43,557 nt of DNA from the NCBI GenBank assembly GCA_016929735.1, contig JAFGID010000185.1, forward strand, positions 1-43,557, given 5' to 3'. Both the position numbers and the translations under genes were made by a program. Source of the stretch: Ignavibacteriales bacterium. Its GTDB lineage: Bacteria; Bacteroidota; Ignavibacteria; Ignavibacteriales; Melioribacteraceae. Below are positions 814 through 34,709 of this stretch, one piece after another (position 1 is the stretch's first letter; every line of letters starts with the position of its first letter). Below the pieces are notes generated by a model. The model was not told where the DNA came from and made no database searches. It worked only from the letters and a program-made list of their open reading frames with translations.

Positions 814-828
814 TTTACTGGAGTTTTA

Positions 829-9140: not shown

Positions 9141-9255
9141 TTGTGCAAGCAATTTATGATAAATAAAAAATTTTTAGTATTTTTGAAAAAGTTTATACAG
9201 AAATAATGAACATAATAGAATAAACACAATTTATCACAGTCGGTACAATGTAATT

Positions 9256-9768: not shown

Positions 9769-9947
9769 ACACATAGCATGATGTATCATTATTCCCATTC
9801 ATTAAGAATTATTAAAATCTTATATTAAACTTTTTCTCTTTTTCCTTTGAAAAATCCCTGTTTATTTTTTCTCTTTAAGAAATTTCTATTTTTTCTTTAT
9901 CTTTCCAATGCAAAATTTTATTATTTCAATAAATTTCAAAAACGGTT

Positions 9948-11522: not shown

Positions 11523-11531
11523 TAGAATAAA

Positions 11532-12666: not shown

Positions 12667-12667
12667 T

Positions 12668-13867
12668 ATGGGACCATTAGTACCTGAAGTATTTAGCAAT
12701 GAATTTAATTTAATCATTGCTTTCGTAGTGGGGATTTGTTTTGGTTTTATTCTTGAACAAGCCGGTTTTTCTTCAACAAGAAAATTAGTTGGATTATTTT
12801 ACGGATATGATTTTACGGTTCTAAAAGTGTTCTTTACTGCAGGTGTTACTGCAATGCTCGGAGTAATTTTATTTTCTCATCTCGGATGGTTAGATTTAAG
12901 TTTGATTTATATTAACCCAACTTTTCTATATTCTGCAATAATCGGTGGTTTAATAATGGGACTTGGATTTATTATTGGTGGGTTCTGTCCTGGAACAAGT
13001 TTTTGTGCTTTGGCAATTGGAAAAATTGATGCTCTTGCATTTGTAATTGGTAGTGCTGTTGGAGTTCTCGCGTTTATGGAAGGATATCCATTATTGGAAG
13101 GTTTGTACAAAGCGGAAAATTGGGGCTCAATTACCTTCCCGCAAATCTTGAATATTTCACCTGTTTTATTTGCTTTGACCATGACGTTGATGGCAATTGG
13201 TGCGTTTTATTTTACTACAAAAATTAAAAAGAAAGTCAATAAGGATAAAACTGAATTAAGTAAAAAACAAATCAGGGGAATTATTGGTTTTGCTATTGTT
13301 CCATTTATAATTTTATTTTATGTTGGAATTACACCAAGTTGGAAAGAGTCCATTTATACCCAGATTTGTAATGAAGAAATACTACAAAAATGTAATTTTC
13401 AAAAGATTTCAACTGATAAGTTAGCCTATGAATTGGTCAACAATTATTACAAAATAAATTTAATTGATGTTAGAACACCTGAAGAATACAAAGAATTTCA
13501 TTTGCCATTAGCGATAAATATTCCGTTAGACAGTATGTTGAATCGTGAATGGAGTGGACTATTCAATCAGGATTTGAAGAAGAATATTTTTTATGCTGAT
13601 ACAATATGCAATGCTAATCGTGCTTGCATTATAGCTAAAAATATTGGAGACTCAGATAATTATATTTTAGTAGATGGTCCATATACATTTCATAATTTAA
13701 TTTTTATTCCTACAAATCCCGGTGGCAATTCATCAAAAGAAGAATTGATGACATATAAGTTTCGGTTACAGGCTGGAAATGATATATTGGAATTGCAGAA
13801 AAAATTGAAGAATATTGGTTCTACCGAAAAAAAACAAGTCAGGAAAGTCAAAGGAGGCTGTGGCTAA
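12668..13867 (+). CDS. YeeE/YedE second half fused to an extra TM helix, a rhodanese-like domain and a C-terminal GGCG tail
   Basis: GGFCPGTSFCALA motif in the transporter half, then a K-rich loop KIKKKVNKDKTELSKKQIR and one more TM segment. The rhodanese-like segment follows (LIDVRTPEEYKEFHLPLAINIPL ... IFYADTICNANRAC). The protein ends in RKVKGGCG. It starts 1 nt after the previous stop. Confidence 0.75.
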   Translation: MGPLVPEVFSNEFNLIIAFVVGICFGFILEQAGFSSTRKLVGLFYGYDFTVLKVFFTAGVTAMLGVILFSHLGWLDLSLIYINPTFLYSAIIGGLIMGLGFIIGGFCPGTSFCALAIGKIDALAFVIGSAVGVLAFMEGYPLLEGLYKAENWGSITFPQILNISPVLFALTMTLMAIGAFYFTTKIKKKVNKDKTELSKKQIRGIIGFAIVPFIILFYVGITPSWKESIYTQICNEEILQKCNFQKISTDKLAYELVNNYYKINLIDVRTPEEYKEFHLPLAINIPLDSMLNREWSGLFNQDLKKNIFYADTICNANRACIIAKNIGDSDNYILVDGPYTFHNLIFIPTNPGGNSSKEELMTYKFRLQAGNDILELQKKLKNIGSTEKKQVRKVKGGCG

Positions 13868-13933
13868 TTTGTATTTGGAACAGAGGGTTAATTAGCAAGT
13901 ATAAGAGCGATAAAATTAAAATATTTAGTAGTT

Positions 13934-16196: not shown

Positions 16197-16263
16197 TCGA
16201 CTTCGCTCGGTAAACATTAGGAAATCTAGATTGTTGAGCGAAGTCGAAACAATCTATGTTTTT
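16197..16263. terminator. Intergenic element with two mutually exclusive hairpins between convergent genes
   Basis: Perfect 12-bp arms tcgacttcgctc (16197-16208) and gagcgaagtcga (16236-16247). A second 9-bp hairpin, tagattgtt (16227-16235) / aacaatcta (16248-16256), uses the first hairpin's right arm as its loop and is followed by tgttttt. Confidence 0.5.
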
Positions 16264-17074
16264 AAATAAACAATACTAAACTCACGGCCATAACAACCAT
16301 CCCGATTATCATACCGAAAATTGATAAATGATGTTCTCCAAATTCTCTTGCAGAGGGGAGGAGCTCATCTAATGAAATGTAAATCATTATTCCTGCGACT
16401 GAAGAAAAGACAAGTCCAAAAACAAGGTCACTCATAAATTGATAAATAATAAAATATCCTACTAATGCTCCAATTGGTTCTGCTAAGCCGGATAAAAAGG
16501 AATAACCGAATGCTTTCTTTTTGTTTCCAGTGGCGTAAAAAATTGGAATTGATACTGCTATTCCTTCAGGTATGTTGTGAATTGCAATTGCAACTGCAAT
16601 TGGAATACCGATAGACAAATCTTTTAATGCTGCAATAAATGTAGCGAGTCCTTCGGGAAAGTTATGTATCCCTATTGCAAGTGCAGTAAATAAACCTGTG
16701 CGAAGTAATTTTCTATTTTTATCAGCACTTGCAATTTTTTGGACCTCTTCAACCTTATGAATTTCGTGTGGGTTTTCACCGGTTGGAATGACTTTATCAA
16801 TTATGCCGATAAGAAATATTCCTCCAAAAAATCCTGCTATTGTTAACCAGTTGCCAGCGGATTCACCGTAGGAACATATTAAGGTATCTTTTGCTTTCGA
16901 AAATATTTCAACTAATGAAACGTAAATCATCACACCGGCAGAAAAGCCGAGAGCAAATGATAAAAATTTTATGTTTGTTTGTTTAGTGAAAAATGCAAGA
17001 ATACTTCCAATTCCAGTTGATAATCCGGCAAATAGGGTTAATAGAAAAGCAAGTAAAAGATTTTCTTCGTTCAT
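16262..17074 (-). CDS. zupT: ZIP-family zinc transporter ZupT
   Basis: A 270-aa polytopic protein with [10 protein letters not shown] and [12 protein letters not shown] motifs and a layout typical of ZupT. Confidence 0.88.
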
Positions 17075-17086
17075 ATTTATTTAAAT

Positions 17087-17121
17087 GTTAGAGGTCAGAC
17101 GTCAAATGTCAGGCGCCAGAC
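17087..17121. repeat. Array of five degenerate heptamers (GTTAGAG GTCAGAC GTCAAAT GTCAGGC GCCAGAC)
   Basis: Read directly from the sequence. It is a GC-rich, 7-nt-periodic tract filling the spacer between the M28-PDZ peptidase stop (17143) and the zupT start (17074). Confidence 0.7.
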
Positions 17122-17142
17122 AAAAAGTATTTTATTAAATTT

Positions 17143-18924
17143 TTATAATATCACAATTAAAACGATTTTCTCATCATTTCGTATAACTTCAACTATTATT
17201 TGCTGTCCAACTTCAAAATCAGAAAGACGATTCATATATTCGTAAATATCATTCACAGGTTTACCATTCATTGCAACAATAATATCACCCTTCTGTATTC
17301 CAGCTACGTCTGCTGGTTTTCCTTTTTTGACACCATCTACTTTTAATCCTTTAATATTGGCTCCCGCGATGTCGGGCATAATTCCTAATGTTACCTTGTA
17401 ACTTTTTTGGCTATCCTCGGCTTTTTCCTTCCCAGATTCTGTAAATAAGATTTCACTGTCTATATTACAAAATTTTTCTAAAAGATTGTAAACAAAATCA
17501 CTTACCTCTTTATGTCCAAGTTGATTTATTTTATTAGGGGTATCTTCCGGGGTATGATAGTCGAGTGTAATCCCAGTAAAGAAAAATAAAACGGGTATAT
17601 TATTAGTATAAAAAGAAGCGTGGTCGGACGGCCCAAAACCTTCGGGTGAAAATTTCAAATTTAAATCAGTTCCAGCCGCGACTTCTTTTATCATTCCCTC
17701 TAATCCTATTGCTGTACCTGTTCCGCCAATAGTCAAACCCTTTGTTTCAGGATCAAGACATCCAACCATATCCAGGTTGAACATAAATTTAATTTTATCT
17801 AAATCAAACAATGGATTGTTGACAAAATATTTCGAACCTAGAAGTCCCATCTCTTCGCCGTCAAAAGATATAAAAATAATGCTTCTTTTATTTTGTCTTG
17901 TGTTGGCAAACTTTTCAATTATCTCGATTATTGATGAAACACCACTTGCATTATCATCTGCACCAAAATGAATCGCATTTGTATCTGGTCTTCTTGAACC
18001 AGAACCTTCACCTCCCCAACCGAGATGGTCGTAATGAGCACCTATAACTATGTATTCATTTTTTAAAACAGGGTCATTCCCTTCTAGTAAAGCGACGATA
18101 TTTTTCGCCTGCGCTTCTACTCGAATTAAGTCTATCTCCGCTTTAACTTTTTGTTCATATATAAAGCTGCTTGGTGTCATTGTTCTGTTTATTTCATCTT
18201 CCAAAATAGATATGTTAGTTCGTATATCTGTAAAAATATAATCTGCTACTTCTCGTTTAATATGAATGACAGGCAGTCCTGTTGAACTTTCTCTTTTACC
18301 GAAAGACAAACTTGTTAATTCATCATTTGGATTGTAATTTTTACCTGACACAAAGAGCACCCCTGCAGCACCATGGTCCTTTGCTACCATGATTTTTTTC
18401 CTGATTGATGTATAATTTTTGAATGGATCATTTCTCTGATTTGCTGGTGATCCGAGAAAAATCATTGCCCAATGACCTGATATATCTATATCACTATAAT
18501 CATTCCAAAACATTGTATCGTTCTGAAAGTCAAAACCATAGCCAAGAAACGCAACCGGATAATCATAAAAGCCAGATTCAGATATTGATAGCGGATTATA
18601 ATCTAAGCCAATAGAAAAACTTTTATTGTTTATTGATAATAAATTCTGTTCACTTGCTTCAACTGATGTAAATATCTCAAAATTCTGAAATCCGTTATCG
18701 TACGGAAAAATCAAGTTGCTGATTTCAAGTTGAGATTTGATATAATCACTTGCAAGCTTTCCTCCTTCTGTTCCAGGTTTTCGTCCTTCGCATTCTTCGG
18801 ATGCAAGATATTTAATATGAGCATACAGTTCTTCAACAGTTATTTCAGGATTAGTCTGATCTTGTGCAATGATTGAGTAAAACGTAACAAACAAAAGAAT
18901 AATAAAAAATTTAATTATTTTCAT
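17143..18924 (-). CDS. M28-family aminopeptidase with PA domain and C-terminal PDZ domain
   Basis: Signal peptide, then M28 metal-binding motifs GAHYDHLG, GADDNASGVSSIIE and FDGEEMGLLGS. The C-terminal segment GIQKGDIIVAMNGKPVNDIYEY is PDZ-like. Confidence 0.85.
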   Translation of the reverse strand: MKIIKFFIILLFVTFYSIIAQDQTNPEITVEELYAHIKYLASEECEGRKPGTEGGKLASDYIKSQLEISNLIFPYDNGFQNFEIFTSVEASEQNLLSINNKSFSIGLDYNPLSISESGFYDYPVAFLGYGFDFQNDTMFWNDYSDIDISGHWAMIFLGSPANQRNDPFKNYTSIRKKIMVAKDHGAAGVLFVSGKNYNPNDELTSLSFGKRESSTGLPVIHIKREVADYIFTDIRTNISILEDEINRTMTPSSFIYEQKVKAEIDLIRVEAQAKNIVALLEGNDPVLKNEYIVIGAHYDHLGWGGEGSGSRRPDTNAIHFGADDNASGVSSIIEIIEKFANTRQNKRSIIFISFDGEEMGLLGSKYFVNNPLFDLDKIKFMFNLDMVGCLDPETKGLTIGGTGTAIGLEGMIKEVAAGTDLNLKFSPEGFGPSDHASFYTNNIPVLFFFTGITLDYHTPEDTPNKINQLGHKEVSDFVYNLLEKFCNIDSEILFTESGKEKAEDSQKSYKVTLGIMPDIAGANIKGLKVDGVKKGKPADVAGIQKGDIIVAMNGKPVNDIYEYMNRLSDFEVGQQIIVEVIRNDEKIVLIVIL

Positions 18925-18966
18925 ATTACCATACTTTTTAGTTTTTACTTTTCAAAGATATGAAAT

Positions 18967-19848
18967 TTACAAATTTTGACTAATCAAAAAAACTCCGATG
19001 AGCATAATTGCAGTTGCAATTGCTTTTCGAATAAGATTTAATTCCTTGAAGATTTTTCCTCCTACGATTGATGCAAAAAAAACTGATATTCGTTTTATTG
19101 ATAGGACAAGTGCAATCGGGGCTAATTTAAATGCTTCAATTTGTGTCCATCGGTATCCAATCGTAATAACGGCAATAACAATAATCCAAAAATAAATATC
19201 TTTATTAGTTTCTTTTAGAAGTTTAATAGGTTTTCCTTTTGCAAGTATATATATCAATATGAAGTTAAAAAGAAAAAATATCTGCTGAAAACCGAGCATA
19301 GTAAAGGGGGGGAGTTGATATGTTGATAAAAGAAGTTTATCTATAATTGATGTCGTTGTAAAAAACAATAATGCAAAAATTATGTAATGATATTTTTTAG
19401 AACGAACAAAAACTAAAAACGGCTCTAATAATTCTTTGTTATTTCTTGTTTCGAGAATGTATGTTCCGACTAGAATTAATCCTATGCCTCCTATTTGATA
19501 AGCATTTAATGATTCTGATAAAAACACAAAAGCAAAAATTGCAACAAATGCCGGAGTTATTACCAGCAAAGGCAAGGCACGACTTATCTCAAGATTTTTT
19601 AATGAAAGCATAACACACCAAAACGCTAACGCCCCTAGAATTGTTTTACCGTATAGTATAAATAAACTCGGTAGAGTTATAGTTGAATAATCTGCAAGGA
19701 ACAAAAAGGGGAGTGCGAAGATTAAATTGAAAATTGAAAGCAGGAAAGAAAATTCAAGAGCACTTTCTTTGAATAAGACTTTCTTTTGAAATATCGCAGC
19801 AAGTGCAGATAAGAAAGCAGATATAAAAGCGATTAAAAACCAAGTCAT
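18967..19848 (-). CDS. EamA/DMT-family transporter
   Basis: A 293-aa protein of about ten TM helices, organised as two EamA-like repeats. Confidence 0.7.
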   Translation of the reverse strand: MTWFLIAFISAFLSALAAIFQKKVLFKESALEFSFLLSIFNLIFALPFLFLADYSTITLPSLFILYGKTILGALAFWCVMLSLKNLEISRALPLLVITPAFVAIFAFVFLSESLNAYQIGGIGLILVGTYILETRNNKELLEPFLVFVRSKKYHYIIFALLFFTTTSIIDKLLLSTYQLPPFTMLGFQQIFFLFNFILIYILAKGKPIKLLKETNKDIYFWIIVIAVITIGYRWTQIEAFKLAPIALVLSIKRISVFFASIVGGKIFKELNLIRKAIATAIMLIGVFLISQNL

Positions 19849-19860
19849 AAATAATCTAAT

Positions 19861-19930
19861 GCAAGACGTTAGACGAAAGACACGAGACGGAAAAAGTCAA
19901 AAGTCAAACGTCAAAGGTTAAACGAAATAA
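19861..19930. repeat. Array of about ten degenerate heptamers (GCAAGAC GTTAGAC GAAAGAC ACGAGAC GGAAAAA GTCAAAA GTCAAAC GTCAAAG GTTAAAC GAAATAA)
   Basis: Read directly from the sequence. It belongs to the same word family as 17087-17121 and fills the spacer between the TonB-receptor stop (19942) and the EamA start (19848). Confidence 0.7.
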
Positions 19931-19941
19931 CAATTTAACAA

Positions 19942-22233
19942 TTAAAACCCTATTTTCATTTTTACAAAAACATTTCTACCAGGTTCGGATTTGATTATTC
20001 CTCTGAATGTTGATAGATGATTTCTGTATGATCTATCAAAAATGTTTTCCACTCCCGCAAAGAGCTGTAAGTCTGCGAAATTAAAATCAAAAACCTTCGA
20101 ACTCAGATAGAAATTTAAGACTGCATAGCCGGGGGTAGTCAATTCTCCATCAGATACTTTATTTTGTGCTGCAAATATAGTTGATGATATATCAAAATTG
20201 ACATATTCAAGAGAATTTATTTTCACCCCAAGACGAGTATTGAACGGAGCAATCTCTGGTAGATATTTATTGTTGTAAGTATCCTCGCCAATTACTAAAG
20301 CGGCATTGCTATATAAAACTAATTTCCTGACAGGTGAATATTCAAGAGATAAATCGAAACCATATAATCTTGCCTTGCCGATGTTTGTTTTGTAGTAATT
20401 GTTTTCAACTGCATTGAATTGGTCCACAACTAAATTTGTAAAATAATTTGTGAAAACATTTCCTGCGAAATAAAAATCATCAGCATTAAATTTCAATCCA
20501 AAATCGAATGAGTTGCCGATTTCCGGTTCAAGATTTGGATTGCCCCAATATGTATATCCGCCAAGTTGAATGTATTGAAATCTTTCTTCCAAACCGGGTG
20601 AGCGGAAGGAATGTGAAGCATTAAAAGATGCACTTAAATTTTTTGTGATTGAATAAATCAATCCGATGTTACCGCTAAACGAATGGTCGCTAACATTGTT
20701 TGCTTCGTATAAAACTGCTTGTCCCGGAGGGTTATCATTTTTTACACCACCGGTAATTGTGTAAAGTGGATTAAGTGCTTCCTCATTTTTTACATTGATT
20801 AAATCAAATCTGCCACCGACGAGAAAACGCAATCCGGCATCTTCAAATGTCAATTCATCCTGTGCATATAAACCTATGCTTCTGAAAGTTGCATTTGGAA
20901 TAGGAAGTTCTGCTGTTACATTTCCGTTTGCTTTGATTGTTCTTAAGCGAATTCCGTCATACTCCCTCTGCCAGGCATCCAATCCAAAAATCAGGAAATT
21001 GTTTTTACTTAAAATCCAGTTTGATTGTATTTGAGAACCGTAAATGTAATGGTCCGCCTTCGGATTCATTATCACATTTGCATTTGGTAAAATCTCAACA
21101 TTCCTTCCAATATATTGGTGGAATAATTTTACCGATATATTTGATAACAGATTTGACAAGTTACCAATTTTATATTCAAAACTGTAAAGTTGTCTATCCT
21201 CAGTTGGATATCTTGCAGAAGCTGACGGAGCAAAAACCGATGCACCAGGTATTCCCACATCGTTTGCATGAAAATTTTGATAACTTAAAATTACTTCGTG
21301 ATTATCGAATGGTTTATAACCAAACTTTCCCGAAATATTATTATCGCTGAATTGGCTGTTTTCCAAAATTCCATCAGGTGTTCGTGTGTTTTTTGCCTCA
21401 CGCATTGAGCCACTTAGCCCAAAATACCATTTGCTTGAACTTGCATTTAAGGATATGTTTCCTGATTTCAAATCATTCACGGAACTATAACCGCTTGTCA
21501 GCGAGCCATTAAACTTAAAAGAATCTTGATAATTATATGAACTTGTAAAAATAATAACTACACCACCTGTAGCACCTGTTCCGTATAATGATGAGTTACC
21601 TCCCTTGACAATTTCAATTCTCTTTATATCATTTAAATCAACCAATGAAAGACCAGCCGCGATGTTTGTTGCTGTTTCAACTCGGTTTCCGTCAACTAAA
21701 ATTACAATGTTATCTCTTTTCATTCCACGGATATTTACGTGTGAACCCCATGTACCATCCTTTGCAACGCTTACACCTGCCTCATCTGTTAGTATATCAC
21801 TTGTTGAAATTGCAAATTTTTGTAAAATTTTGTCTTGACTTACAACTTCAATAGGAATTGGAACATCCTTAATCAGTTTTTCTGTTTTGGAACTGCTGAC
21901 AGTAACTTCACCTAACGAAATTGATGTGGGGGACATTTCGATAATTATTTCCTGTTTGGAATTCTCATTAAAATTTACTTTTATTTTTTCCGTATGATAA
22001 CCAACGTAACTGATAATGAGAGTAAAATTTCCATCGGTTAAATTCTTAAATTCAAATTTTCCTTTTTTATCTGAGGTTGTGAACAATTGCGGCTCAGATA
22101 ATGTAACATTAGCTGAAAATAGTGGCTGTTGGGTTTCCTTATCAATAATAACTCCTTTTAATTCATTCGATTGCGAAAAGGAATTAACGCCACTGAGAAA
22201 GACAACAAGTAAGACAAAAAGCAATTTTTTCAT
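19942..22233 (-). CDS. TonB-dependent receptor with an N-terminal carboxypeptidase-regulatory-like domain
   Basis: Signal peptide, a CarbopepD_reg-like segment (GVIIDKETQQPLFSANV...), a plug domain (VVSQDKI...DGNRV) and a 22-strand-type barrel ending in a terminal F. Confidence 0.88.
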   Translation of the reverse strand: MKKLLFVLLVVFLSGVNSFSQSNELKGVIIDKETQQPLFSANVTLSEPQLFTTSDKKGKFEFKNLTDGNFTLIISYVGYHTEKIKVNFNENSKQEIIIEMSPTSISLGEVTVSSSKTEKLIKDVPIPIEVVSQDKILQKFAISTSDILTDEAGVSVAKDGTWGSHVNIRGMKRDNIVILVDGNRVETATNIAAGLSLVDLNDIKRIEIVKGGNSSLYGTGATGGVVIIFTSSYNYQDSFKFNGSLTSGYSSVNDLKSGNISLNASSSKWYFGLSGSMREAKNTRTPDGILENSQFSDNNISGKFGYKPFDNHEVILSYQNFHANDVGIPGASVFAPSASARYPTEDRQLYSFEYKIGNLSNLLSNISVKLFHQYIGRNVEILPNANVIMNPKADHYIYGSQIQSNWILSKNNFLIFGLDAWQREYDGIRLRTIKANGNVTAELPIPNATFRSIGLYAQDELTFEDAGLRFLVGGRFDLINVKNEEALNPLYTITGGVKNDNPPGQAVLYEANNVSDHSFSGNIGLIYSITKNLSASFNASHSFRSPGLEERFQYIQLGGYTYWGNPNLEPEIGNSFDFGLKFNADDFYFAGNVFTNYFTNLVVDQFNAVENNYYKTNIGKARLYGFDLSLEYSPVRKLVLYSNAALVIGEDTYNNKYLPEIAPFNTRLGVKINSLEYVNFDISSTIFAAQNKVSDGELTTPGYAVLNFYLSSKVFDFNFADLQLFAGVENIFDRSYRNHLSTFRGIIKSEPGRNVFVKMKIGF

Positions 22234-22257
22234 TTAATTCACCTAAATTTTTAATTT

Positions 22258-22286
22258 TTCTTATTTAAATTTAGTCTAAATAAGAA
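22258..22286. promoter_or_regulatory. Perfect 10-bp inverted repeat ttcttattta-N9-taaataagaa upstream of the TonB-dependent receptor
   Basis: Seen directly, 25-53 nt upstream of the receptor start codon. It is AT-only, so a chance occurrence cannot be excluded. Confidence 0.3.
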
Positions 22287-22302
22287 TAAAAAGCAAGGGG
22301 GT

Positions 22303-22328
22303 TAATGGTTAATTTTTTAATGGTGAAT
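22303..22328 (+). promoter_or_regulatory. Composite motif TAATGGTTAAT-tttt-TAATGGTGAAT
   Basis: Two 11-nt copies with a 15-nt register. The same composite recurs in inverted orientation at 24878-24903. Confidence 0.6.
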
Positions 22329-22400
22329 GGAAAATTATTAGAATTAGAATAAAATACTTTTATTACTAAAAAATGTTTTATAAAAAAGCTAAAGATGACT

Positions 22401-23123
22401 TTAAAATTGGAGAAAATCATCATTTAAATTATTAAAAGGATTTTTATAAATATTTAGTATGTAATCATAATCTCTAACAATAAATCTATCCTTAATCCTT
22501 TTATATGGTTCAGCATTTAATTCTTTATCAACTTTTTTCATATGCTCATTATTACATAATATATAAAAAGACAAATTAAATTCTACTAATTGAAAAATTC
22601 TCTTTAAAGATGGTTCTAACGTTGAAATACTATCAACAACTTCAATGGCTTTTTTAGGAAACCTATATCCTTTATCATTAAACCACAAAACATCAATTCT
22701 TTTAGCTTTATCAACAATCTCTTTATAAGTAAAATCGGGTATACTAGATAATGTTGATATCTCTGAAAGAGCAATATTATTATATCTAGCTGTTGGATCT
22801 GAAGTATATGTCTTTAATTTTAAAAAATTACCAATTTCAATACATACACCTTCAATATGTGAATGCATACGGATTTTGTCTTGTTTTAAATCTTCAATTT
22901 TTTCTTCTTTATAATCTAAAAGAGCATATAATGAAAGCCCAACTTTTTTAAAAATTTTATTTCTCTTTATTTCCCTGTATAAAACACCCCTAATTCCCAC
23001 CTCCCATTCATTTGAGGATTTTATACCGGGGTAATATTTTTCAATTTGGTTATAAATAATATTCCAAGTTGCGATACCGCCGTTATCCTCTAAAACTTTT
23101 TTTATTGCCTCTACTTTTGTCAT
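22401..23123 (-). CDS. Hypothetical protein with an N-terminal winged-helix (Mrr_N/HARE-HTH-like) domain and a possible PD-(D/E)xK-like nuclease core
   Basis: The N-terminus AIKKVLEDNGGIATWNIIYNQIEKYYP resembles the wHTH of restriction-associated proteins. Further on, HIEGVCIEIGNFL, RIDVLWF and AIEVVDS are spaced like nuclease-core strands. The gene lies in a markedly AT-rich islet and has no SD before its ATG. Confidence 0.45.
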   Translation of the reverse strand: MTKVEAIKKVLEDNGGIATWNIIYNQIEKYYPGIKSSNEWEVGIRGVLYREIKRNKIFKKVGLSLYALLDYKEEKIEDLKQDKIRMHSHIEGVCIEIGNFLKLKTYTSDPTARYNNIALSEISTLSSIPDFTYKEIVDKAKRIDVLWFNDKGYRFPKKAIEVVDSISTLEPSLKRIFQLVEFNLSFYILCNNEHMKKVDKELNAEPYKRIKDRFIVRDYDYILNIYKNPFNNLNDDFLQF

Positions 23124-23304
23124 TATATTTTTTTTTAATTAAGTTAATTGAAGTTTTATAATTAGTTTCATCTATTTCTTCTATTGAATTTCTTTCAAGA
23201 TTTAATACATCAGCAATATTAGTAAACAGCAATCCTCTGTTTCGGAGTTGCTCTGTTTCAATATCTGTCTTTTTTATGTTTATTTTGAGAAATATTGTAT
23301 CCAT
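23083..23304 (-). CDS. Small upstream ORF (73 aa), possibly the displaced 5' part of the 22401-23123 gene
   Basis: A GGAG lies 8 nt upstream of its ATG. It overlaps the downstream ORF by 41 nt and contains an A9 tract. Removing one A fuses the two ORFs in frame. Confidence 0.4.
   Translation of the reverse strand: MDTIFLKINIKKTDIETEQLRNRGLLFTNIADVLNLERNSIEEIDETNYKTSINLIKKKYNDKSRGNKKSFRG
23128..23136 (-). repeat. A9 homopolymer (T9 on + strand) at the junction of the two islet ORFs
   Basis: Counted directly. The tract encodes KKK in the upstream ORF and ends 4 nt before the ATG of the downstream ORF. Confidence 0.9.
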
Positions 23305-23446
23305 GATTCATACTCCAAATAAGATGTTTATTCAACATCAATAGAATTTATTTACCTACTACAAATTTACAAAAATATTTTAATTCCTGCCCTCACTTAT
23401 TAAGGGAAATTTTATTAATGGAACAAGTAAGCGTTATATATTCGAT

Positions 23447-24460
23447 TTAAAATTGTACTTGTATAAGAAGTGATAATCCATAGTGTTTATCGCCATATTC
23501 GGGCAGAAAAGTATCAAAGTTAAACTGAAAACTCGTTATATTTGAAAATTCATGATTAACACCAAATGTAAACTGATTATCACGAAAATCAAACTGCTTA
23601 AAACTCCATGACTGCCATCTGGCAAGAAACATAGTGTTTTCAAAAAACTTGTAGCCAGCTGTAAAATAATATCCATTGATTTTTTCTTTTCTGTCACTAA
23701 AATCTTCTGTTTCGAGAGTCCCTTCAAGGTATTCGGCGGCTAGTAAAAACTTGTTTGTTTCCATTTTAATGTCACCGCCATAAATCGTGCGTTCGCCTCT
23801 AAGCGTCGGGCCAGAACTACCACTGCGGACGCCATCTGAACGACCATGCGAACCTTGTACTGCGACCTGAAGTTGACCAGCCATAATGTCTGCGAATGTA
23901 TACTGCAATCTTCCAATGCCATAAAATTTGTTATTATTATTTAATGAAAGTTTGTTGCCATTAAAAATTCCAGTGAAATAATAAAGTCCGCCAATATTTC
24001 CTTCTGCAGATAATCCGATCTCGCGTGACTGTACAAGTAGTCCAGTAATTTTTGTTCTGTCAATAAAATCTGTTGAACCCGGGTCGGGAATATAATCAAG
24101 TGTCTGTTTCGGCTTCATTGCTCCAGCAGTAATAAGCAAGCAATCACCGAAACGGTAACCAACAAATGCATCTAACAAATTAGGTTCACGGGCTAAGTTA
24201 AAAAAAACACGATAATAAAATTTATCTTCAATAATACCTTTAAAACTAAGTCGGGCATTAGCAACCTCAAATGTGCGTCCATTTTGAAAATCATTGTTTT
24301 CAAAAGAATACCTGAACCCTGTCTGTACCAAAACATTTACAGTAAAAAACTCATGCTGGATTATTGATTTGATTTTTTCTTCAAAAGTTTCATCCTGTGC
24401 CAGCAATTCTGTCGCTAAAATAATACCGAATAGCAAAAACATTTTTATAAAATACTTCAT
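23447..24460 (-). CDS. Outer-membrane porin (porin O/P-like beta-barrel)
   Basis: Signal peptide, alternating amphipathic beta-strand pattern with many G/Y/F residues, and a C-terminal ...IQVQF. Confidence 0.55.
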   Translation of the reverse strand: MKYFIKMFLLFGIILATELLAQDETFEEKIKSIIQHEFFTVNVLVQTGFRYSFENNDFQNGRTFEVANARLSFKGIIEDKFYYRVFFNLAREPNLLDAFVGYRFGDCLLITAGAMKPKQTLDYIPDPGSTDFIDRTKITGLLVQSREIGLSAEGNIGGLYYFTGIFNGNKLSLNNNNKFYGIGRLQYTFADIMAGQLQVAVQGSHGRSDGVRSGSSGPTLRGERTIYGGDIKMETNKFLLAAEYLEGTLETEDFSDRKEKINGYYFTAGYKFFENTMFLARWQSWSFKQFDFRDNQFTFGVNHEFSNITSFQFNFDTFLPEYGDKHYGLSLLIQVQF

Positions 24461-24816
24461 AATTTCTCCTTTGTATGTGTTTCTTTGTTAGATATTTGTT
24501 CCCCCATGTCTAATGGCTTATACATTCTTTTAAGGTGTTTTTTTAATTGATTAAATCTTATAATTCCGATAAACAAAATTATAACACTTAACCCAATCGA
24601 AACATAACCGAGATTCCTAATTTCTGTTAGTTCCGTCATGCCCAAGAATGCAATGCCACCTAAAACGAGGTATAGAGATGTCCTTATATAAGAGAGCAGC
24701 GTTCTTTCATTTGCTAATTTAGTCCTTTCCATTGATAGATGATCTCTTAGGATGATCTCTTCTTTTTTTTCATAATCATCCGTAAATTTGAGTAAATGTT
24801 TAAATTTCTTTCTCAT
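24457..24816 (-). CDS. DUF202 (YidH-like) inner-membrane protein
   Basis: LSMERTKLANERTLLSYIRTSL motif followed by TM helices. A 4-nt overlap joins it to the porin gene downstream. Confidence 0.75.
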   Translation of the reverse strand: MRKKFKHLLKFTDDYEKKEEIILRDHLSMERTKLANERTLLSYIRTSLYLVLGGIAFLGMTELTEIRNLGYVSIGLSVIILFIGIIRFNQLKKHLKRMYKPLDMGEQISNKETHTKEKL

Positions 24817-24877
24817 AATGAAATACTAATTTTTTATACACAAATATTAATTAATTTTGTCACACTTAATTAAAAAT

Positions 24878-24903
24878 ATTAACCATTACCACATTAACCA
24901 TTA
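24878..24903 (-). promoter_or_regulatory. Composite motif TAATGGTTAAT-gtgg-TAATGGTTAAT (read on - strand)
   Basis: The + strand reads attaaccatta-ccac-attaaccatta. It has the same 11+4+11 architecture as 22303-22328, lies 62-87 nt upstream of the DUF202 start, and overlaps the stop codon of the S58 peptidase gene. Confidence 0.6.
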
Positions 24904-26031
24904 TTTAATTCTATTATATTTTCTCATTATTTCCATCACCTCATCAATAGGCAAAGCTTTGACTTCGCGGTTATTTATTCCCGTCATCGTTTCGGCTGCG
25001 AACAGGGAATTTATAATTGCTTCTTCTGTTGATTCTATAGTTGCAAGGAAAAGTGGTGTCATATCATCGTTTCGTAAAACTTCAGATTTGTAAAATGGCG
25101 ATTCGTCAGAGTGAGGAATAAAATTATCTTTTGCAACTGATATTGCTATTATATAATCACCGCTTCCATTCGACGCCATACCTCCAGTTTTTGCTAATCC
25201 GAGGAATGCACGCTTTGCCAATCTTTCCAAATTTCTCGGGCATAGAGGAGCATCGGTAATTACAACAATCATACACGAACCATCACTATCAGTTAATATA
25301 TCGTCTTTGTAAGGATACTTATTTAATTCTTTTGCTATTGGAACGCCGTTAATTTCAAGCACACCACCGAAATTGGTTTGCACCAGAACACCAACTGTAT
25401 AACCACCCAAAGATGGTGGTAACACTCGCGATGATGTTCCAATACCCCCTTTATATCCGAAACAAATTGTTCCTGTGCCAGCGCCAACATTTCCTTCTTC
25501 AACAATTCCGTCTTTTGCATTTTTAATTGCTTTTAAAACATCTTCTTCGGTAATATGTCTTCCTTGAATATCATTCAGCCCACCATCGTTTGTCTCGCCA
25601 ACAACGGGATTAACAGAACGCACATTTTTATTTTCAGGAAAACTTAAAGTCCAACTAATCAAGGCATCCGATGCAGTGGGAACGCTTAATGTATTCGTCA
25701 AAATTATCGGTGTTTCAATATTTCCTAATTCTTTAACTTGCGTGTATCCTGCTAATTTACCAAAACCATTTCCGACATAAATTGCAGCCGGTACTTTTAG
25801 CTGGAATATATTTCCCGAATACGGTAATATTGCTGTCACGCCTGTCCGTATGCTATCTCCGATTGTTAAAGTTGTATGCCCGACTTTTACTCCTTCAACA
25901 TCAGTTATTGCATTATTTTCACCAGTTTTGAATATTCCTATTTCAATTCCATAATCGCGTGGTCTTTTAGTTTGTGCCAACATATTAATTCCTATTAATA
26001 AAATTGTTACGGTTATAATCCTTCCTTTCAT
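24901..26031 (-). CDS. P1/S58-family peptidase (DmpA/BapA-like aminopeptidase)
   Basis: Signal peptide, GVKVGHTT, and the self-processing-type segment GYKGGIGTSSRV. Length and layout match DmpA-type Ntn hydrolases. Confidence 0.8.
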   Translation of the reverse strand: MKGRIITVTILLIGINMLAQTKRPRDYGIEIGIFKTGENNAITDVEGVKVGHTTLTIGDSIRTGVTAILPYSGNIFQLKVPAAIYVGNGFGKLAGYTQVKELGNIETPIILTNTLSVPTASDALISWTLSFPENKNVRSVNPVVGETNDGGLNDIQGRHITEEDVLKAIKNAKDGIVEEGNVGAGTGTICFGYKGGIGTSSRVLPPSLGGYTVGVLVQTNFGGVLEINGVPIAKELNKYPYKDDILTDSDGSCMIVVITDAPLCPRNLERLAKRAFLGLAKTGGMASNGSGDYIIAISVAKDNFIPHSDESPFYKSEVLRNDDMTPLFLATIESTEEAIINSLFAAETMTGINNREVKALPIDEVMEIMRKYNRIK

Positions 26032-29766: not shown

Positions 29767-31833
29767 ATGAAAAAATCTATCTACATTTTTTATATTTCTT
29801 TATTACTTGTAACAAATTGTTTCGGATTTTTTGATTTTAGTTTGCACTTGAATTTTGAATTACAAATTGTTGACACAAATAAAATTCAGGACACGACTTC
29901 TTTGCAGGATACAACAATAAAAATTGATACAACACAACAAGTAAGAGCCGATACACTTTTCCCAATTCAATTTTCAACAATTCAGTCTAAAGCACAATAC
30001 AGCACAATATTACATCGCGAGGAAATAAAATGGTATGATTATCGTTATCTTGGGGATATTTTTTCTTATCTACCTACTGGTTTTTTACAGGATTTAGGTT
30101 CGTTTGGACAACCAAGCGAAATTATTCTTTATGGGCTTGGTCATAATAACATTTCATACATCGCAGATGGAACTCCGATAAATAATAGAATTCAAAATTC
30201 GTTTGATGCAAATAATTTCTCATTAGAAATTATTGATTCACTTGAGGTGGTGCCCTTGCCTCGAGGTTTTCTATATGGTTCCCAAAATAATCCGATTTCA
30301 GTTAATTTTATTACTAAAGATGAAATTTCGCTGAGACCATTTTCGCGAATAAGATTTCATCAAGCACCTTACGAAGAAGGTATGATTGATGCAATGCTCA
30401 ATATGTATCCCTTTAAGAAAGTTAATTTTACTTTTCAACTTAGTAATTCGAGCATAGAACCTGTTGCAAGGTATGCAAGAAATAATTTATATGGTTATTC
30501 AAGTGCAGACGCAGGAATATGGATGCTCAATACAAAAATAAAATATTTTCTTTCTAATAAAATAAATTTTCTCGCTGGTTATCATTGGGTGAGCAGTAAG
30601 GTATTTTTGAATGGTGGGGCAATGAGTACAGATGGTTTAGATGAATTGCCTTACCAAGTGTTTTATGATTCAAGATATCAATTGCAAAACCAACATAATT
30701 TTAATCTTAAAGTTCTCACAAAATTTATAAAGTCCTTCCCCTCAACATTAAATTTGTATTATCACTACAATGAAATTAAATTCAGGCAAAATGAATATGA
30801 AGAAGCGATTGCAACACCAATTATTTTTGATGATAACAAATACCATCTGTTGGGTACCAATTTATACCAAAATCTGAATTTGAAATATTTTAATGGTGAA
30901 ATTATTTTAGGTTATGAATATGCAAAATATAAAACTGACTTATTAAACAATAATGAAAGTATATCAACCTCTTTTCTATCGGGTAAAATTAATTTCCCTT
31001 TAATGAAAGATTTGTTAATACCCAGTGTGTATGGAAAGATTTTATACCAACAAGAAAAAACATATCAGGGGTTGGGTGCTGATGTAAATTTAAATATTTC
31101 CAAGAAAGTAAATTTATATGTAGGCTTTTCATTTTTTGACAGGCCATTAAATATAATCGAAAAATATTTTTCAAATGCAACGATAGAGAAACAAAAATAC
31201 AAGGTATTTGAAATGGGTACCAAAGTAAATTTAGGTAAATTAAAAGCGAGCGCTTCATTTTTCACATCGAAAATAGAAAACAATTCTTTGCCTGTTATAA
31301 ATATTTATTCGGATACACTTCTTGTTACAAATGTTGGTTTTTATACTTTTGTTGAATCGGTACGAAGTGGTGTAAGTATAAATATCAGCTACAGTATATG
31401 GAAATTACTTTTTTCGTTTAACTCAACATACAATTATGCAAATGATGCTGAAAAGCTATATCGTGTTCCAGATATTACAGCAGTTGGTGGTGTTTATTAT
31501 GTTGACACTTTATTTGAGAAAAACTTAAAACTCAAAGCGGGATTAAATTTTAAATATTTCGGTAACAGGGATTATCAAATTTATGATTTTGAAAAAAATA
31601 TTTCTGCTTTGCATTATTTCCATCAATCTTTAGGAAATTTAAATTTTCTAAGTGCCACTTTATTCAAGCCAAAATTTCAAATAGATATTTTTATTGCAGG
31701 ACAAATAAAATCAAATGCAGTTCTATATTTTGTATTTGAAAATTTACTTAATCAAACAAATTATATAATACCATATTATCCCAAGCAGGAGCGAGGTATA
31801 AGATTTGGCTTCTCTTGGCAATTTTTAGATTAG
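29767..31833 (+). CDS. Outer-membrane beta-barrel protein, TonB-dependent-receptor-like (plug + barrel)
   Basis: Signal peptide and a plug-like segment (LGDIFSYLPTGFLQDLGSFGQPSEIILYG...ADGTPINN), then a long Y/F/N/G-rich barrel. It is divergent and I identified no clear TonB box. Confidence 0.6.
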   Translation: MKKSIYIFYISLLLVTNCFGFFDFSLHLNFELQIVDTNKIQDTTSLQDTTIKIDTTQQVRADTLFPIQFSTIQSKAQYSTILHREEIKWYDYRYLGDIFSYLPTGFLQDLGSFGQPSEIILYGLGHNNISYIADGTPINNRIQNSFDANNFSLEIIDSLEVVPLPRGFLYGSQNNPISVNFITKDEISLRPFSRIRFHQAPYEEGMIDAMLNMYPFKKVNFTFQLSNSSIEPVARYARNNLYGYSSADAGIWMLNTKIKYFLSNKINFLAGYHWVSSKVFLNGGAMSTDGLDELPYQVFYDSRYQLQNQHNFNLKVLTKFIKSFPSTLNLYYHYNEIKFRQNEYEEAIATPIIFDDNKYHLLGTNLYQNLNLKYFNGEIILGYEYAKYKTDLLNNNESISTSFLSGKINFPLMKDLLIPSVYGKILYQQEKTYQGLGADVNLNISKKVNLYVGFSFFDRPLNIIEKYFSNATIEKQKYKVFEMGTKVNLGKLKASASFFTSKIENNSLPVINIYSDTLLVTNVGFYTFVESVRSGVSINISYSIWKLLFSFNSTYNYANDAEKLYRVPDITAVGGVYYVDTLFEKNLKLKAGLNFKYFGNRDYQIYDFEKNISALHYFHQSLGNLNFLSATLFKPKFQIDIFIAGQIKSNAVLYFVFENLLNQTNYIIPYYPKQERGIRFGFSWQFLD

Positions 31834-31850
31834 AGATACAGGAGGATAAA

Positions 31851-34682
31851 ATGAAATTGAAAATTTTATTGTTTTTCACCATATTAGTATTGGGAGTTTT
31901 AAAAGGGCAGCTAATCACTTGGACACCTGTTAGTGTTACGGAAGATGATTCTGTCATAGTTTATTTTGATGCCACACAGGGTAGTGGCGGACTTGCCGGC
32001 TATACTGGTGATGTCTATGCTCACACCGGTGTATTAACAGATATTAGTGTAAACACAGGAGATTGGAAAGCAGTCAAAACTAATTGGGGACAAAATACCC
32101 CTGAAACAAAGTGCGAAAGAATAGCACCTGATTTGTATAAATTTGTAATTCGCCCTTCTGTTAAAGAATTTTATCCCCTTGACCCCGATGGTTCTGACGG
32201 AGAAGAATATTTATATATTGCTTTTGTATTTAGAAGTGCAACAAGTCCGTATCTTGAAGGTAAGACAGCTGACGGAGGTGATATATTCTTACCAATGGGA
32301 AGTATTGTTAAAATATTTTCACCAGAGGAAAAAATATTTTTTGTAGAAAGATATGACAATGTAACTATCAAGGCAATTGCTCACGAAAACAGTGATACAC
32401 TTAAATTATTTATAGACGATATCCTCGAAACTTATGTTTTAAGTGATACACTTGATTATATAATTTCCGCAGATGACTATGGAATTAAAAATGTAAAAGT
32501 GTCTGCATTCAATGACTCCGGATTTTTGGGCTCTGATTCATTCGCTTATGTGGTAAGTCCCCCGGTAACAAAAGAAAATTTACCTGCTAGCGTTTGTCAG
32601 GGAATAAACTATACAAGTGATACTTCTGTTGTGCTTGTTTTGTTTGCACCAAACAAGAAGAATGCTTTTGTGCTTGGTGATTTTAATGATTGGAAGGTTA
32701 ATTTAAATTATTATATGAAAAGGACACTTGACGATTCAACTTACTGGTTGCAAATTAATGGTCTAAATGTCGGAGAAGAATATGCATATCAGTATTTGGT
32801 TGACGAAGAATTATTCATTGCAGACCCTTACACAGATAAAATTCTCGATCCTTGGAATGATAAATATATCACAAGTGCAACTTACCCCGACTTAAAAGCA
32901 TATCCAACAGGAAAAGCAACGGGAATCGTTTCTGTATTGCAAACTGCACAAACTCCTCATGTATGGAATGATTCAAGTTTTATTCGTCCAGCTAAAACTG
33001 ATTTGGTGATTTACGAATTGTTGATTCGTGATTTCAGAAGTCAACATACTTTCCAATCTGTGATTGATAGTATTCCATATCTCAAACGGCTTGGTGTTAA
33101 TGCAATTGAATTGATGCCTGTAAATGAATTTGAAGGGAACAATAGTTGGGGTTATAATCCATCATTCTATTTTGCTCCAGATAAATATTATGGACCGAAA
33201 AATAAGCTTAAAGAACTGATTGATGTTTGTCATCAAAATGGAATTGCAGTTATTATGGATATTGTTTTAAATCATTCTTATGGTCAATCTCCACTTGTTA
33301 AACTTTATTGGGATGAAGTTAATAACCGACCGGCACCTGATAATCTTTGGTATAATTTTGTATCGCCTAATCCTGTTTATTCATGGGGATATGATTTCAA
33401 TCATCAGAGTCCTCATACAAAAGCGTTTGTTGATAGCGTGAATAAATATTGGTTAATTGAATATCATTTTGATGGTTTTAGATTTGATTTTACAAAGGGA
33501 TTTACAAATACCCCGGGTGACGGAAGTGGTTATGATTTACAAAGAATTAATATACTAAAAAGAATGGCTGATAAAATCTACGAAATTGATTCTACATATT
33601 ATGTTATACTAGAACATTTTGCTCCTAATACTGAAGAGATTGTATTATCTGATTATGGAATGATGTTGTGGGGAAATATGAATTATAATTACGGTGAAGC
33701 TTCAATGGGTTGGAATCAGAGCGGAAAATCAAATTTTCAAGGAGTTTCTTATAAATATAGAAACTGGAATTTCCCCCATCTTGTTGGCTATATGGAAAGT
33801 CACGATGAAGAAAGAATTATGTATAAAAATTTGAATTATGGAAATCTAAGTGGAACATACAATATAAAAAATTCTACAACGGCACTGAACCGCATAAAAT
33901 TGATATCAGCGTTTTTCTTTACTATTCCAGGACCTAAAATGATCTGGCAGTTTGAAGAACTCGGCTACGATTACTCAATTGATTACAACGGCAGAACAGG
34001 TGAAAAACCAATTCGTTGGGATTACTATCAGAATACAGAAAGAAAAAAGTTGTACAAGACGATGAAAGAATTAATTAATTTGAAGAAGAATTACGAAGTA
34101 TTTCGAACAGCCGATTTTTGGATTGATGTGGCAGATGAAACAAAAGAGATACATCTTAATCATCCGACTATGAATGTAACAATTCTCGGAAATTTCGATG
34201 TAATAAATCAATCAATGATACCAAATTTTCAGCATACAGGAACGTGGTATGAATTTTTTCGAGGCGATAGTATAATAGTTGCTGATACAGCTGCTTTAGT
34301 ATTTTTGAAACCCGGTGAATTCAGAATTTATACAACTGTTAAATTACCAACACCCGAAGAAGGAATTGCGACTGATATTAAAATATTAAAAGCAGAAATT
34401 ATAGAAGAATATCGGCTTGAACAGAACTATCCTAATCCATTTAATCCGAAAACTTTAATCCGCTATGCAATACCGTTAGATGTCAAAGGAAAAACGTCAA
34501 ATGTTTTATTGAAGGTTTATGATATTCTTGGACAAGAAGTTACAACTTTGGTTAATGAAGAAAAAGCTCCGGGAATTTACCAAGTTGAATTTAATGCAGG
34601 CAATTTAACAAGTGGAATCTATATGTACAGAATACAGGTGAATGATATTTTAATAACTAAGAAAATGATTTTGTTGAAGTGA
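31851..34682 (+). CDS. GH13 alpha-amylase-family glycosidase with N-terminal binding modules and a T9SS C-terminal sorting domain
   Basis: GH13 regions GVNAIELMPVNEF, DIVLNHS, GFRFDFTKG, LEHF and YMESHDEER, plus a CBM48/E-set-like segment (FAPNKKNAFVLGDFNDW). The C-terminal NYPNPFNPKT...VYDILGQEV...SGIYMYRI is T9SS CTD-type. The start is set at the ATG preceded by ggagga. Confidence 0.85.
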   Translation: MKLKILLFFTILVLGVLKGQLITWTPVSVTEDDSVIVYFDATQGSGGLAGYTGDVYAHTGVLTDISVNTGDWKAVKTNWGQNTPETKCERIAPDLYKFVIRPSVKEFYPLDPDGSDGEEYLYIAFVFRSATSPYLEGKTADGGDIFLPMGSIVKIFSPEEKIFFVERYDNVTIKAIAHENSDTLKLFIDDILETYVLSDTLDYIISADDYGIKNVKVSAFNDSGFLGSDSFAYVVSPPVTKENLPASVCQGINYTSDTSVVLVLFAPNKKNAFVLGDFNDWKVNLNYYMKRTLDDSTYWLQINGLNVGEEYAYQYLVDEELFIADPYTDKILDPWNDKYITSATYPDLKAYPTGKATGIVSVLQTAQTPHVWNDSSFIRPAKTDLVIYELLIRDFRSQHTFQSVIDSIPYLKRLGVNAIELMPVNEFEGNNSWGYNPSFYFAPDKYYGPKNKLKELIDVCHQNGIAVIMDIVLNHSYGQSPLVKLYWDEVNNRPAPDNLWYNFVSPNPVYSWGYDFNHQSPHTKAFVDSVNKYWLIEYHFDGFRFDFTKGFTNTPGDGSGYDLQRINILKRMADKIYEIDSTYYVILEHFAPNTEEIVLSDYGMMLWGNMNYNYGEASMGWNQSGKSNFQGVSYKYRNWNFPHLVGYMESHDEERIMYKNLNYGNLSGTYNIKNSTTALNRIKLISAFFFTIPGPKMIWQFEELGYDYSIDYNGRTGEKPIRWDYYQNTERKKLYKTMKELINLKKNYEVFRTADFWIDVADETKEIHLNHPTMNVTILGNFDVINQSMIPNFQHTGTWYEFFRGDSIIVADTAALVFLKPGEFRIYTTVKLPTPEEGIATDIKILKAEIIEEYRLEQNYPNPFNPKTLIRYAIPLDVKGKTSNVLLKVYDILGQEVTTLVNEEKAPGIYQVEFNAGNLTSGIYMYRIQVNDILITKKMILLK

Positions 34683-34709
34683 TTAATAACAAATTAATAT
34701 ATTTAAATT

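Follow-up and report, generated by a model that had tools for sequence, protein, structure and literature searches.

Two kinds of described repeats come closest to the element reported here. The TAACTGA repeats are intergenic heptamer direct repeats of Beggiatoaceae, Cyanobacteria and some Bacteroidetes (MacGregor 2015, PMC4679880). They occur as 2-6 or more tandem copies that hug start or stop codons, and they have neither a shared gene function nor a known mechanism (PMC4679880). The other kind comprises the repetitive extragenic palindromes (REP) and their inverted doublets, the REPIN (Bertels & Rainey 2011, PMC3116915; Di Nocera et al. 2013, PMC3733652). The REP unit is an imperfect palindrome of 20-40 nt with a GTAG or CGTC tag (PMC3733652). 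The element in question is a 26-nt composite motif found twice, in inverted orientation (sites A and B), in 43,557 nt of an Ignavibacteriales bacterium (GenBank assembly GCA_016929735.1, contig JAFGID010000185.1, positions 1 to 43,557; this whole stretch is called the window).

The two sites belong to a family of GGT(T/G)AAT repeats, which is an undescribed variant of the REP-like heptamer arrays and is neither a transposon nor a transport-specific operator pair. On balance, the evidence slightly favours sites A and B being copies of this dispersed, extragenic REP-like repeat, in which the arms of a palindrome have been split by inserted genes. The closest relatives in kind are the TAACTGA-type heptamer repeats, and the closest in behaviour are REP and REPIN. 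Like the TAACTGA repeats and the long simple sequence repeats (LSSR), the family has a tandem, intergenic unit of 7 nt that is rich in stop codons, and a patchy distribution that includes Bacteroidetes. Its neighbouring genes also have no common function, and relatives differ in steps of 7 nt. Unlike the TAACTGA repeats, it shows a 7+8 register, pairing with inverted copies and no strand preference, and its arrays favour stop codons rather than start codons. The strings GGTTAAT, TTAATGG, TAATGGT, GGTGAAT, ATTAACC and ATTCACC are absent from the main text of PMC4679880.

The similarities with REP and REPIN concern behaviour: the copies are extragenic and multiple and persist at orthologous positions across species, and the compact inverted doublets of the family can fold into hairpins, which the arms in the window would do only if placed side by side. 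The arrays are also enriched at gene 3' ends and between convergent genes (28 versus 6 between divergent genes, n = 94; 41/56 at a stop codon), and the lineages have their own 'dialects' (T or G at position 8). However, the GGT(T/G)AAT unit is a non-palindromic tandem heptamer or 15-mer without the GTAG or CGTC tag, the copy number in the lineage of the window is low, and the arms there are 2.5 kb apart. No REP-associated tyrosine transposase (RAYT, a Y1 transposase) was found among the open reading frames (ORFs) of the window scanned against Pfam, which were all except seven beyond 36.8 kb.

Sites A and B in the window and in its nearest relative

Site A lies at 22303-22328 on the plus strand (TAATGGTTAAT-tttt-TAATGGTGAAT), and site B at 24878-24903 on the minus strand (TAATGGTTAAT-gtgg-TAATGGTTAAT). 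A sequence-only reading of the window had described a 26-nt composite present twice in inverted orientation and made of four 11-mers, three of them identical, in a common 15-nt register; the letters of both strands agree with this at both sites. It had also considered the pair unlikely to arise by chance, and rightly: at up to 3 mismatches the two sites are the sole matches to the composite in the window, compared with a mean of 0.01 in 100 shuffles. The single 11-mer was not enriched in the window (8 found at up to 1 mismatch versus 5.9 expected), and no further exact copy of it was found there outside the two sites; the signal thus resides in the composite. The pair is also the top inverted repeat (I1) of the region.

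The repeat is built of the heptamer GGT(T/G)AAT, whose 7+8 arrangement accounts for the 15-nt register and gives TAATGGTKAAT-N4. The full heptamer array of site A (GGTTAAT GGTTAAT tTTTTAAT GGTGAAT GG) covers 22300-22330 on the plus strand and contains the 26-mer. Head-to-tail heptamers (GGTTAATGGTTAAT) are found at 22300-22313, and both sites contain further units of 7 or 8 nt, as expected of a tandem repeat. The 11-mer and the 26-mer are direct repeats without GTAG or CGTC, and the outer flanks of the two sites (GGGGG... and ...TTTAAT) are unrelated. A weaker copy had been noticed at 23415. This partial copy (TTAATGGAACA, 23415-23425, plus strand, near the far end of the DUF202-porin segment) does exist; it is merely one heptamer, is at chance level (TAATGG, n = 33 in the window), and has no counterpart in the nearest relative. 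The Rfam scan of the window found nothing, and a literature search by sequence string returned only primers and probes of unrelated studies.

Every gene from 27956 down to 16262 is carried by the minus strand. In the order of transcription, the genes for an RsmF-like methyltransferase and an S58 peptidase are followed by site B, the DUF202 gene, the porin gene, a 73-aa ORF, a 240-aa ORF and site A; the order continues with a TonB-dependent receptor, an EamA transporter, an M28/PDZ peptidase and a ZIP metal transporter. Pfam confirmed the earlier receptor and DUF202-porin labels (TonB-dependent receptor, Porin_O_P and DUF202), and also the Peptidase_S58 identity. Site A is antisense to the flanking genes and precedes the receptor ATG (22233) by 69 nt, as site B precedes that of DUF202 (24816) by 61 nt. 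These distances fit the placement given before (about 60-95 nt upstream of outer-membrane units), and the two sites indeed have opposite orientations relative to these genes. Site B opens with a TAA (24903-24901) that serves as the stop codon of the S58 peptidase gene (24901-26031, minus strand; Pfam), a point absent from the sequence-only reading.

A homologue of the 240-aa protein (84% identical) is encoded on contig JAFGPR010000104.1 of the Ignavibacteriales metagenome-assembled genome (MAG) GCA_016936095.1 (locus L205); the same MAG is the source of two motif matches in the genome scan described below. This contig is syntenic with the window over ~30 kb at ~77% nucleotide identity. The order there is RsmF, S58, site B, 43 nt, the 73-aa ORF, a 244-aa ORF, site A, receptor, EamA, M28 and ZIP. 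Site A is identical in 31/31 nt, with one extra GGTTAAT at its inner edge. Site B reads TAATGGTTAAT-GCGT-TAATGGTTAAT and again opens on the stop codon of the S58 gene (9675-9677); it matches in 24/26 nt, and both changes are in the spacer. Outside this spacer, 53/53 array positions are identical, whereas the coding regions are 73-82% identical and the other intergenic regions 50-69% (one 88%). The invariance of the arrays beside such divergent intergenic DNA indicates that they are under constraint. Judged from the aligned sequences, both arrays are older than the split of the two species.

The GGT(T/G)AAT family in other genomes

An exact scan for TAATGGTNAATNNNNTAATGGTNAAT in one genome per species (596 Gb) gave at least 117 stretches. 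By chance, the 20 fixed bases should give ~1 match at uniform composition, and <~20 if all of this DNA were AT-rich. Most of the listed matches come from Saprospiraceae MAGs, with at least a dozen in each genome, and from Bacteroidales, further Bacteroidia and a single Ignavibacteriales MAG; Cyanobacteria, Chloroflexota and Cloacimonadota contribute a few. Viral contigs gave only 9 matches. The flanks of the listed arrays contain further heptamers (ggttaatggttaat..., ggtgaatggtgaat...), 15-mer runs and longer pure heptamer runs, and the reverse complement very often follows a few bases beyond the array.

The placement of these arrays is strongly biased. Among the 124 arrays in the listed loci, 94 are intergenic, 13 are in ORFs and 17 are at a locus edge, so that intergenic positions account for 94 of the 107 arrays that could be assessed. 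On their 5' (TAATGG) side, the arrays are separated from the neighbouring gene by a median of 5 nt, compared with 80 nt on the 3' side, and 58/94 occupy the initial tenth of the space between the genes (binomial p = 3e-34). Where the upstream gene is co-directional, 41/56 arrays begin no more than 6 nt from its stop codon or supply it. An inverted 11-mer within 300 nt is found downstream in 54/124 arrays and upstream in 2. In the compact element, the inverted copy lies 0-60 nt past the array; the loops are variable, the interior is not conserved, and these copies fold at -30 to -60 kcal/mol into a long hairpin placed 3' of the gene. The genes on the two sides are co-directional in 60 cases, convergent in 28 and divergent in 6 (n = 94). 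This positional profile is that of REP-like extragenic palindromes and not that of operators.

The arrays might also be functionless simple-sequence repeats, which arose by replication slippage of a heptamer and were kept by chance. The copy number does vary in steps of 7 or 15 nt among the loci, with a difference of one heptamer between the window and L205; among the long simple repeats of many prokaryotes, heptanucleotides are also reported to be the most frequent (Mrazek et al. 2007, as cited in PMC4679880). However, slippage would not account for the 53/53 array positions kept where other intergenic DNA is 50-69% identical, for the stop-codon bias (p = 3e-34), or for the recurrence of the identical word across families and phyla. 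This explanation is therefore most improbable.

About half of the family consists of solo arrays. Between co-directional genes, 16 of them are sense and 17 antisense; the lack of strand bias suggests that the arrays are recognised on double-stranded DNA or in the form of a symmetric hairpin, and not on mRNA. The start-adjacent genes (n = 65) have no common function: URO-D was found four times, others once or twice, and receptors and porins not at all.

These counts bear on the proposal that the sites are tandem operators of one transcription factor, which would co-regulate the receptor operon and the DUF202-porin unit. In its favour, each site precedes the leading gene of an outer-membrane unit by 61-69 nt; the 11-mers are kept while the spacer varies, as in protein-binding sites, and site A adjoins promoter-like sequence. 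However, the relative retains site B without the porin or DUF202 gene, and its further arrays follow metY and lexA. The receptor orthologues of 50% identity and the porin homologues are without the motif; apart from the one relative, the receptor homologues found are at most 51% identical and occur in a FeoAB-TM1266-receptor-EamA-CobA context. Moreover, there is no enrichment of receptors or porins among the 65 start-adjacent genes, the arrays are depleted between divergent genes (6/94) and enriched between convergent ones, and the orientation is opposite at the two sites. The first of the two explanations offered in the sequence-only reading, namely binding sites of a regulator of outer-membrane genes, is not supported in view of the keeping of site B without its target, the missing enrichment and the avoidance of divergent regions; operators of this kind are quite unlikely. 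Boxes of Fur, Zur and AdcR, pho boxes, LytTR sites, DnaA boxes and DNA uptake sequences were considered as further candidates, and the sequence gives no support for them.

Some members of the family occupy narrow spaces. At locus L037 (1530-1575), which is in the MAG of the relative, the entire 32-nt spacer between metY and metX consists of TTAATGG units, with the metY stop codon inside the array and the metX ATG 16 nt past the composite. An array can thus sit in an apparent operon without room for a terminator.

A proposed split palindrome and the possible function of its arms

About four composite arrays are known in the lineage of the relative (among the matches listed); besides A and B, its MAG has one at the junction of metY and metX and another 5 nt past the end of lexA. 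Two of these few arrays, A and B, lie only 1.1 kb apart in L205 (2.5 kb, or 2549 nt, in the window) and in the canonical orientation, which suggests that they are the arms of one palindrome. When site B and the reverse complement of site A are placed side by side, the predicted fold has -19.6 kcal/mol and a 4x4 internal loop. In the proposed history, the array starting at the S58 stop codon (site B) and its inverted partner (site A) would once have been adjacent and formed a single palindromic element. The AT-rich islet with the 73-aa and 240-aa ORFs would have entered the interior of this palindrome before the split of the species. The DUF202-porin pair would have been gained later, at the inner edge of the B arm and only in the lineage of the window, and the promoter of the receptor operon might now use site A (about -38 to -68) as an upstream element.

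The separated arms cannot pair, and yet they are invariant; the 11-mers would therefore have to be read individually. It is tentatively suggested that a sequence-specific protein might bind each 11-mer on duplex DNA. This would account for arms that are invariant while the spacer and the flanks drift, and also for the irrelevance of their orientation relative to transcription.

Site A is part of a longer invariant block. Together with the next 46 nt toward the receptor gene, it forms an exact 77-nt match to L205 (22254-22330, 100% identity), which is tied with one stretch inside the islet for the longest over the ~30-kb alignment. The part between site A and the receptor gene (22254-22299, minus strand, 100% identical to L205) contains promoter-like motifs (cTTG-N20-TAAATTTA) and an inverted repeat. 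The motifs are a plausible promoter of the receptor gene, judged by their letters and position; the consensus scan did not report them, and that scan found no more promoters or terminators in the window than in shuffles. With this arrangement, site A may well contribute to the expression of the receptor operon. The inverted repeat is perfect over 10 bp (TTCTTATTTA-N9-TAAATAAGAA, 22258-22286), contains an inner 6-1-6 palindrome (ATTTAGaCTAAAT) and forms a hairpin with a fold z-score of -3.15; no second copy was found in the window. It may serve as the operator of a metal-responsive repressor or as a hairpin of the 5' untranslated region. The palindrome TATTTAGnCTAAATA was also considered as a shared operator and was dropped, with its sole good match at 22268. 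A single GGTGAAT heptamer is located at 22237-22243 (minus strand), 3 nt before the receptor ATG. A 7-bp pairing between this heptamer and ATTCACC of site A was dropped as well, because it is not kept in the relative.

An alternative is that the two arrays are independent and were never one palindrome, each being a functional binding site on double-stranded DNA or an UP-like element at a gene boundary. Site A would then go with the receptor promoter, and site B with the 3' end of the S58 gene and the next promoter; their convergence and closeness would be coincidental. This fits the large share of solo arrays (about half of the family), the common occurrence of antisense arrays upstream of starts, the position of site A within the 77-nt invariant, promoter-like block, and the spacers of A and B, which are not complementary. 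However, the occurrence of two of the ~4 known arrays within 1.1 kb in the canonical convergent orientation is improbable by chance, and the family prefers downstream over upstream inverted partners (54 versus 2). Independent arrays are therefore considered rather unlikely.

Several points weigh against the split palindrome. No relative was found that has an 'empty' site, with B next to A; the history is therefore drawn from orientation and family habit only. The spacers TTTT (A) and GTGG (B) are not complementary, unlike those of most compact copies. The geometry of site A (antisense, 69 nt upstream) is common among solo arrays, and where a divergent start lies on the 5' side, 19/38 arrays are more than 20 nt from it. 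The separated arms cannot work as a hairpin and yet are invariant, so the arrays serve some function. Moreover, the scan required exact 11-mers, so the copy numbers and the apparent conservation of the family are biased by the query, and the genes in the family loci are crude calls (longest ORFs from the first ATG). The three metatranscriptome runs of the study from which the window comes contained nothing from this locus.

If the identification as a REP-like repeat holds, the arrays represent an undescribed extragenic repeat family in a large and poorly studied part of the bacterial tree. Its sharp habits, namely the start at a stop codon, the pairing with its own inverse and the invariance, would offer a handle for finding the protein that reads it. 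The palindromes would be testable as terminators, boundary elements or landing sites of foreign genes. A lesson for annotation is that accessory genes framed by a striking inverted repeat need not signal a transposon, nor need a motif upstream of two outer-membrane units signal a regulon. Even if the pair is only a relic, a false call of a mobile element and a false call of a regulon are removed. The window itself shows one split copy only; the rules of the family and the insertions between arms are of moderate interest and deserve a genome-wide look.

The interval between the sites and the neighbouring genes

The DUF202-porin segment (23377-24874, minus strand) is a ~1.5-kb indel, in place of which the relative has 43 nt. 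One junction is at the inner edge of site B, and the other is at 23377 or possibly at ~23419. The segment carries the DUF202 gene (24457-24816, minus strand; Pfam) and the O/P-type porin gene (23447-24460, minus strand; Pfam Porin_O_P). Its absence was independently seen in contigs of two metagenome DNA runs from the study of the window. A more abundant organism in these runs shares 22288/22301-22330 and 24875-24920 with the window and diverges exactly at 22330/22331 and 24874/24875. One metagenome contig joins 24875 to 23376 via 43 nt, and the alternative sequences equal L205 letter for letter. A metagenome scan anchored on the S58 peptidase gave 80 loci (best 71% identity), with neither synteny nor the motif. 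The best homologues of the porin are ~70% identical and come from KSB1, Caldithrix and Bacteroidales; their contexts are unrelated and mobile-looking (insertion sequence elements, toxin-antitoxin genes, DUF2254), without the repeat.

A simple inversion of the interval was rejected, because the alternative unitigs continue past site A with the sequence of the relative and not with the reverse complement of the sequence before site B. No inversion joint was found in the contigs of the two DNA runs, which are blind to a rare form, and the relative has the same orientation. The AT-rich islet (22401-23304, minus strand) comprises the two genes between the arrays and has the same orientation in L205. 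Its identity to the islet of L205 (~80%) is that of the flanking genes; with the shared orientation, this indicates that it is old and vertically inherited. The whole interval between A and B is thus not present or absent as a unit between the window and the relative, in which both arms and the islet are kept. For the segment 22329-24877, which had been suspected of mobility, the comparison gives a divided answer: the DUF202-porin part is absent in the relative, while the islet is present and nothing is inverted.

These results concern the possibility that the sites are terminal inverted repeats of a mobile or invertible segment holding the islet, the porin and the DUF202 gene. As in the ends of transposons or miniature inverted-repeat transposable elements, the 26-nt arms are inverted, contain two sub-repeats each, start with TA and enclose accessory genes. 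The 1.5-kb indel lies exactly at the inner edge of one arm, the interior is AT-rich and of foreign type, and genes between convergent arrays are found at other loci. However, Pfam and NCBIfam scans detected no transposase, integrase, invertase or recombinase encoded in or beside the interval, and there is no target duplication. The indel covers only a part of the interval, the islet is vertical (same orientation, ~80% identical as its flanks), no inversion joint appears in the contigs, and the interiors of compact copies are variable. Homologous islets of the NmeDI_C type occur elsewhere without the motif, and the arrays therefore do not mark the termini of a mobile islet. Such a segment is very unlikely. 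Of the second explanation in the sequence-only reading, the transposon or invertible segment is not supported as stated, for want of an enzyme, a target duplication and an inversion; what stands is that the sites edge a variable segment, with the 1.5-kb indel at B, and that they converge in the way typical of the family (54 versus 2).

Convergent pairs that enclose genes at kb distance are also present in loci L026, L082, L107, L096 and L099; in L096 the enclosed gene is a small ORF, and in L099 it encodes a transporter. It has a small chance of being true, in our estimate, that the arrays are recognition sites of a gene-capture system in Bacteroidota and Ignavibacteriota, in which accessory genes dock in the interiors of palindromes. 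Such a system would build palindromes that abut stop codons, unlike integron attC sites or insertion sequences that target REP. Its cargo here would be the restriction-modification-like islet and then the DUF202-porin pair; elsewhere it would include '23S rRNA IVS protein' genes, a transporter and small toxin-antitoxin-like genes.

The core sites of integron attC have the form RYYYAAC/GTTRRRY. Like attC, the element is an imperfect palindrome after a stop codon, with two boxes per arm, a short unpaired spacer and an association with accessory genes. However, CATTAAC/GTTAATG match the core consensus at 5/7 positions (by eye), the boxes within an arm are direct and not inverted, and the gene is inside the palindrome and not beside it. 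No integron integrase or cassette array was found in the window, where the ORFs scanned against Pfam were all except seven beyond 36.8 kb. Membership among transposon ends, invertible segments, attC sites or a transport regulon fails on the tested features and is ruled out.

The '23S rRNA IVS protein' genes (four-helix-bundle, Avd-like) are found inside convergent GGTTAAT arrays at L026 (5727-6200), L082 (1955-2600) and L107 (4082-4700, minus strand). All three loci are from uncultured Bacteroidia, and in L026 and L082 the element is directly upstream of hemE. With its gene enclosed by a long stem, the layout resembles that of rRNA intervening sequences.

Within the islet, the 240-aa ORF (22401-23123, minus strand, 25% G+C) encodes a HARE-HTH/NmeDI_C-like protein with hundreds of homologues (55-74% identity) in Bacteroidales, Helicobacter pylori and others. 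Islet homologues elsewhere usually adjoin a HinfI-like nuclease or a Dam-like methyltransferase, without the GGT(T/G)AAT repeat; the 240-aa gene here has no methyltransferase and is an orphan piece of a restriction-modification system. The 73-aa ORF (23083-23304, minus strand) has no Pfam match and shares 41 nt with the start of the 240-aa gene. Together with 72 nt upstream (23083-23376), it is 90-94% identical to the relative, compared with 73-82% in other coding regions. Such conservation at the nucleotide level is unusually strong for a small ORF without a Pfam match.

The TonB-dependent receptor gene (19942-22233, minus strand; Pfam and NCBIfam) heads the receptor-EamA-M28/PDZ peptidase-ZIP cluster (16262-22233, minus strand; Pfam and NCBIfam), in which the genes are co-directional and their order is kept in L205; distant receptor orthologues adjoin FeoAB and CobA instead. 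This composition suggests an uptake unit for a metal (zinc or iron) or a cofactor. A second indel was found at about 9117-13933 (~4.8 kb), which has no counterpart in the relative, where ~140 nt take its place. This region encodes a multi-haem cytochrome c, a cytochrome b561, two YeeE/YedE-like sulphur-transport proteins with a rhodanese domain, and a 170-aa ORF. The rnpA and yidC genes are found at the start of the window (212-2667); this pair is usually located near the replication origin. Sorting domains of the type IX secretion system are present on two secreted enzymes (31815-36788), which places the window in the Bacteroidota/Ignavibacteriota.

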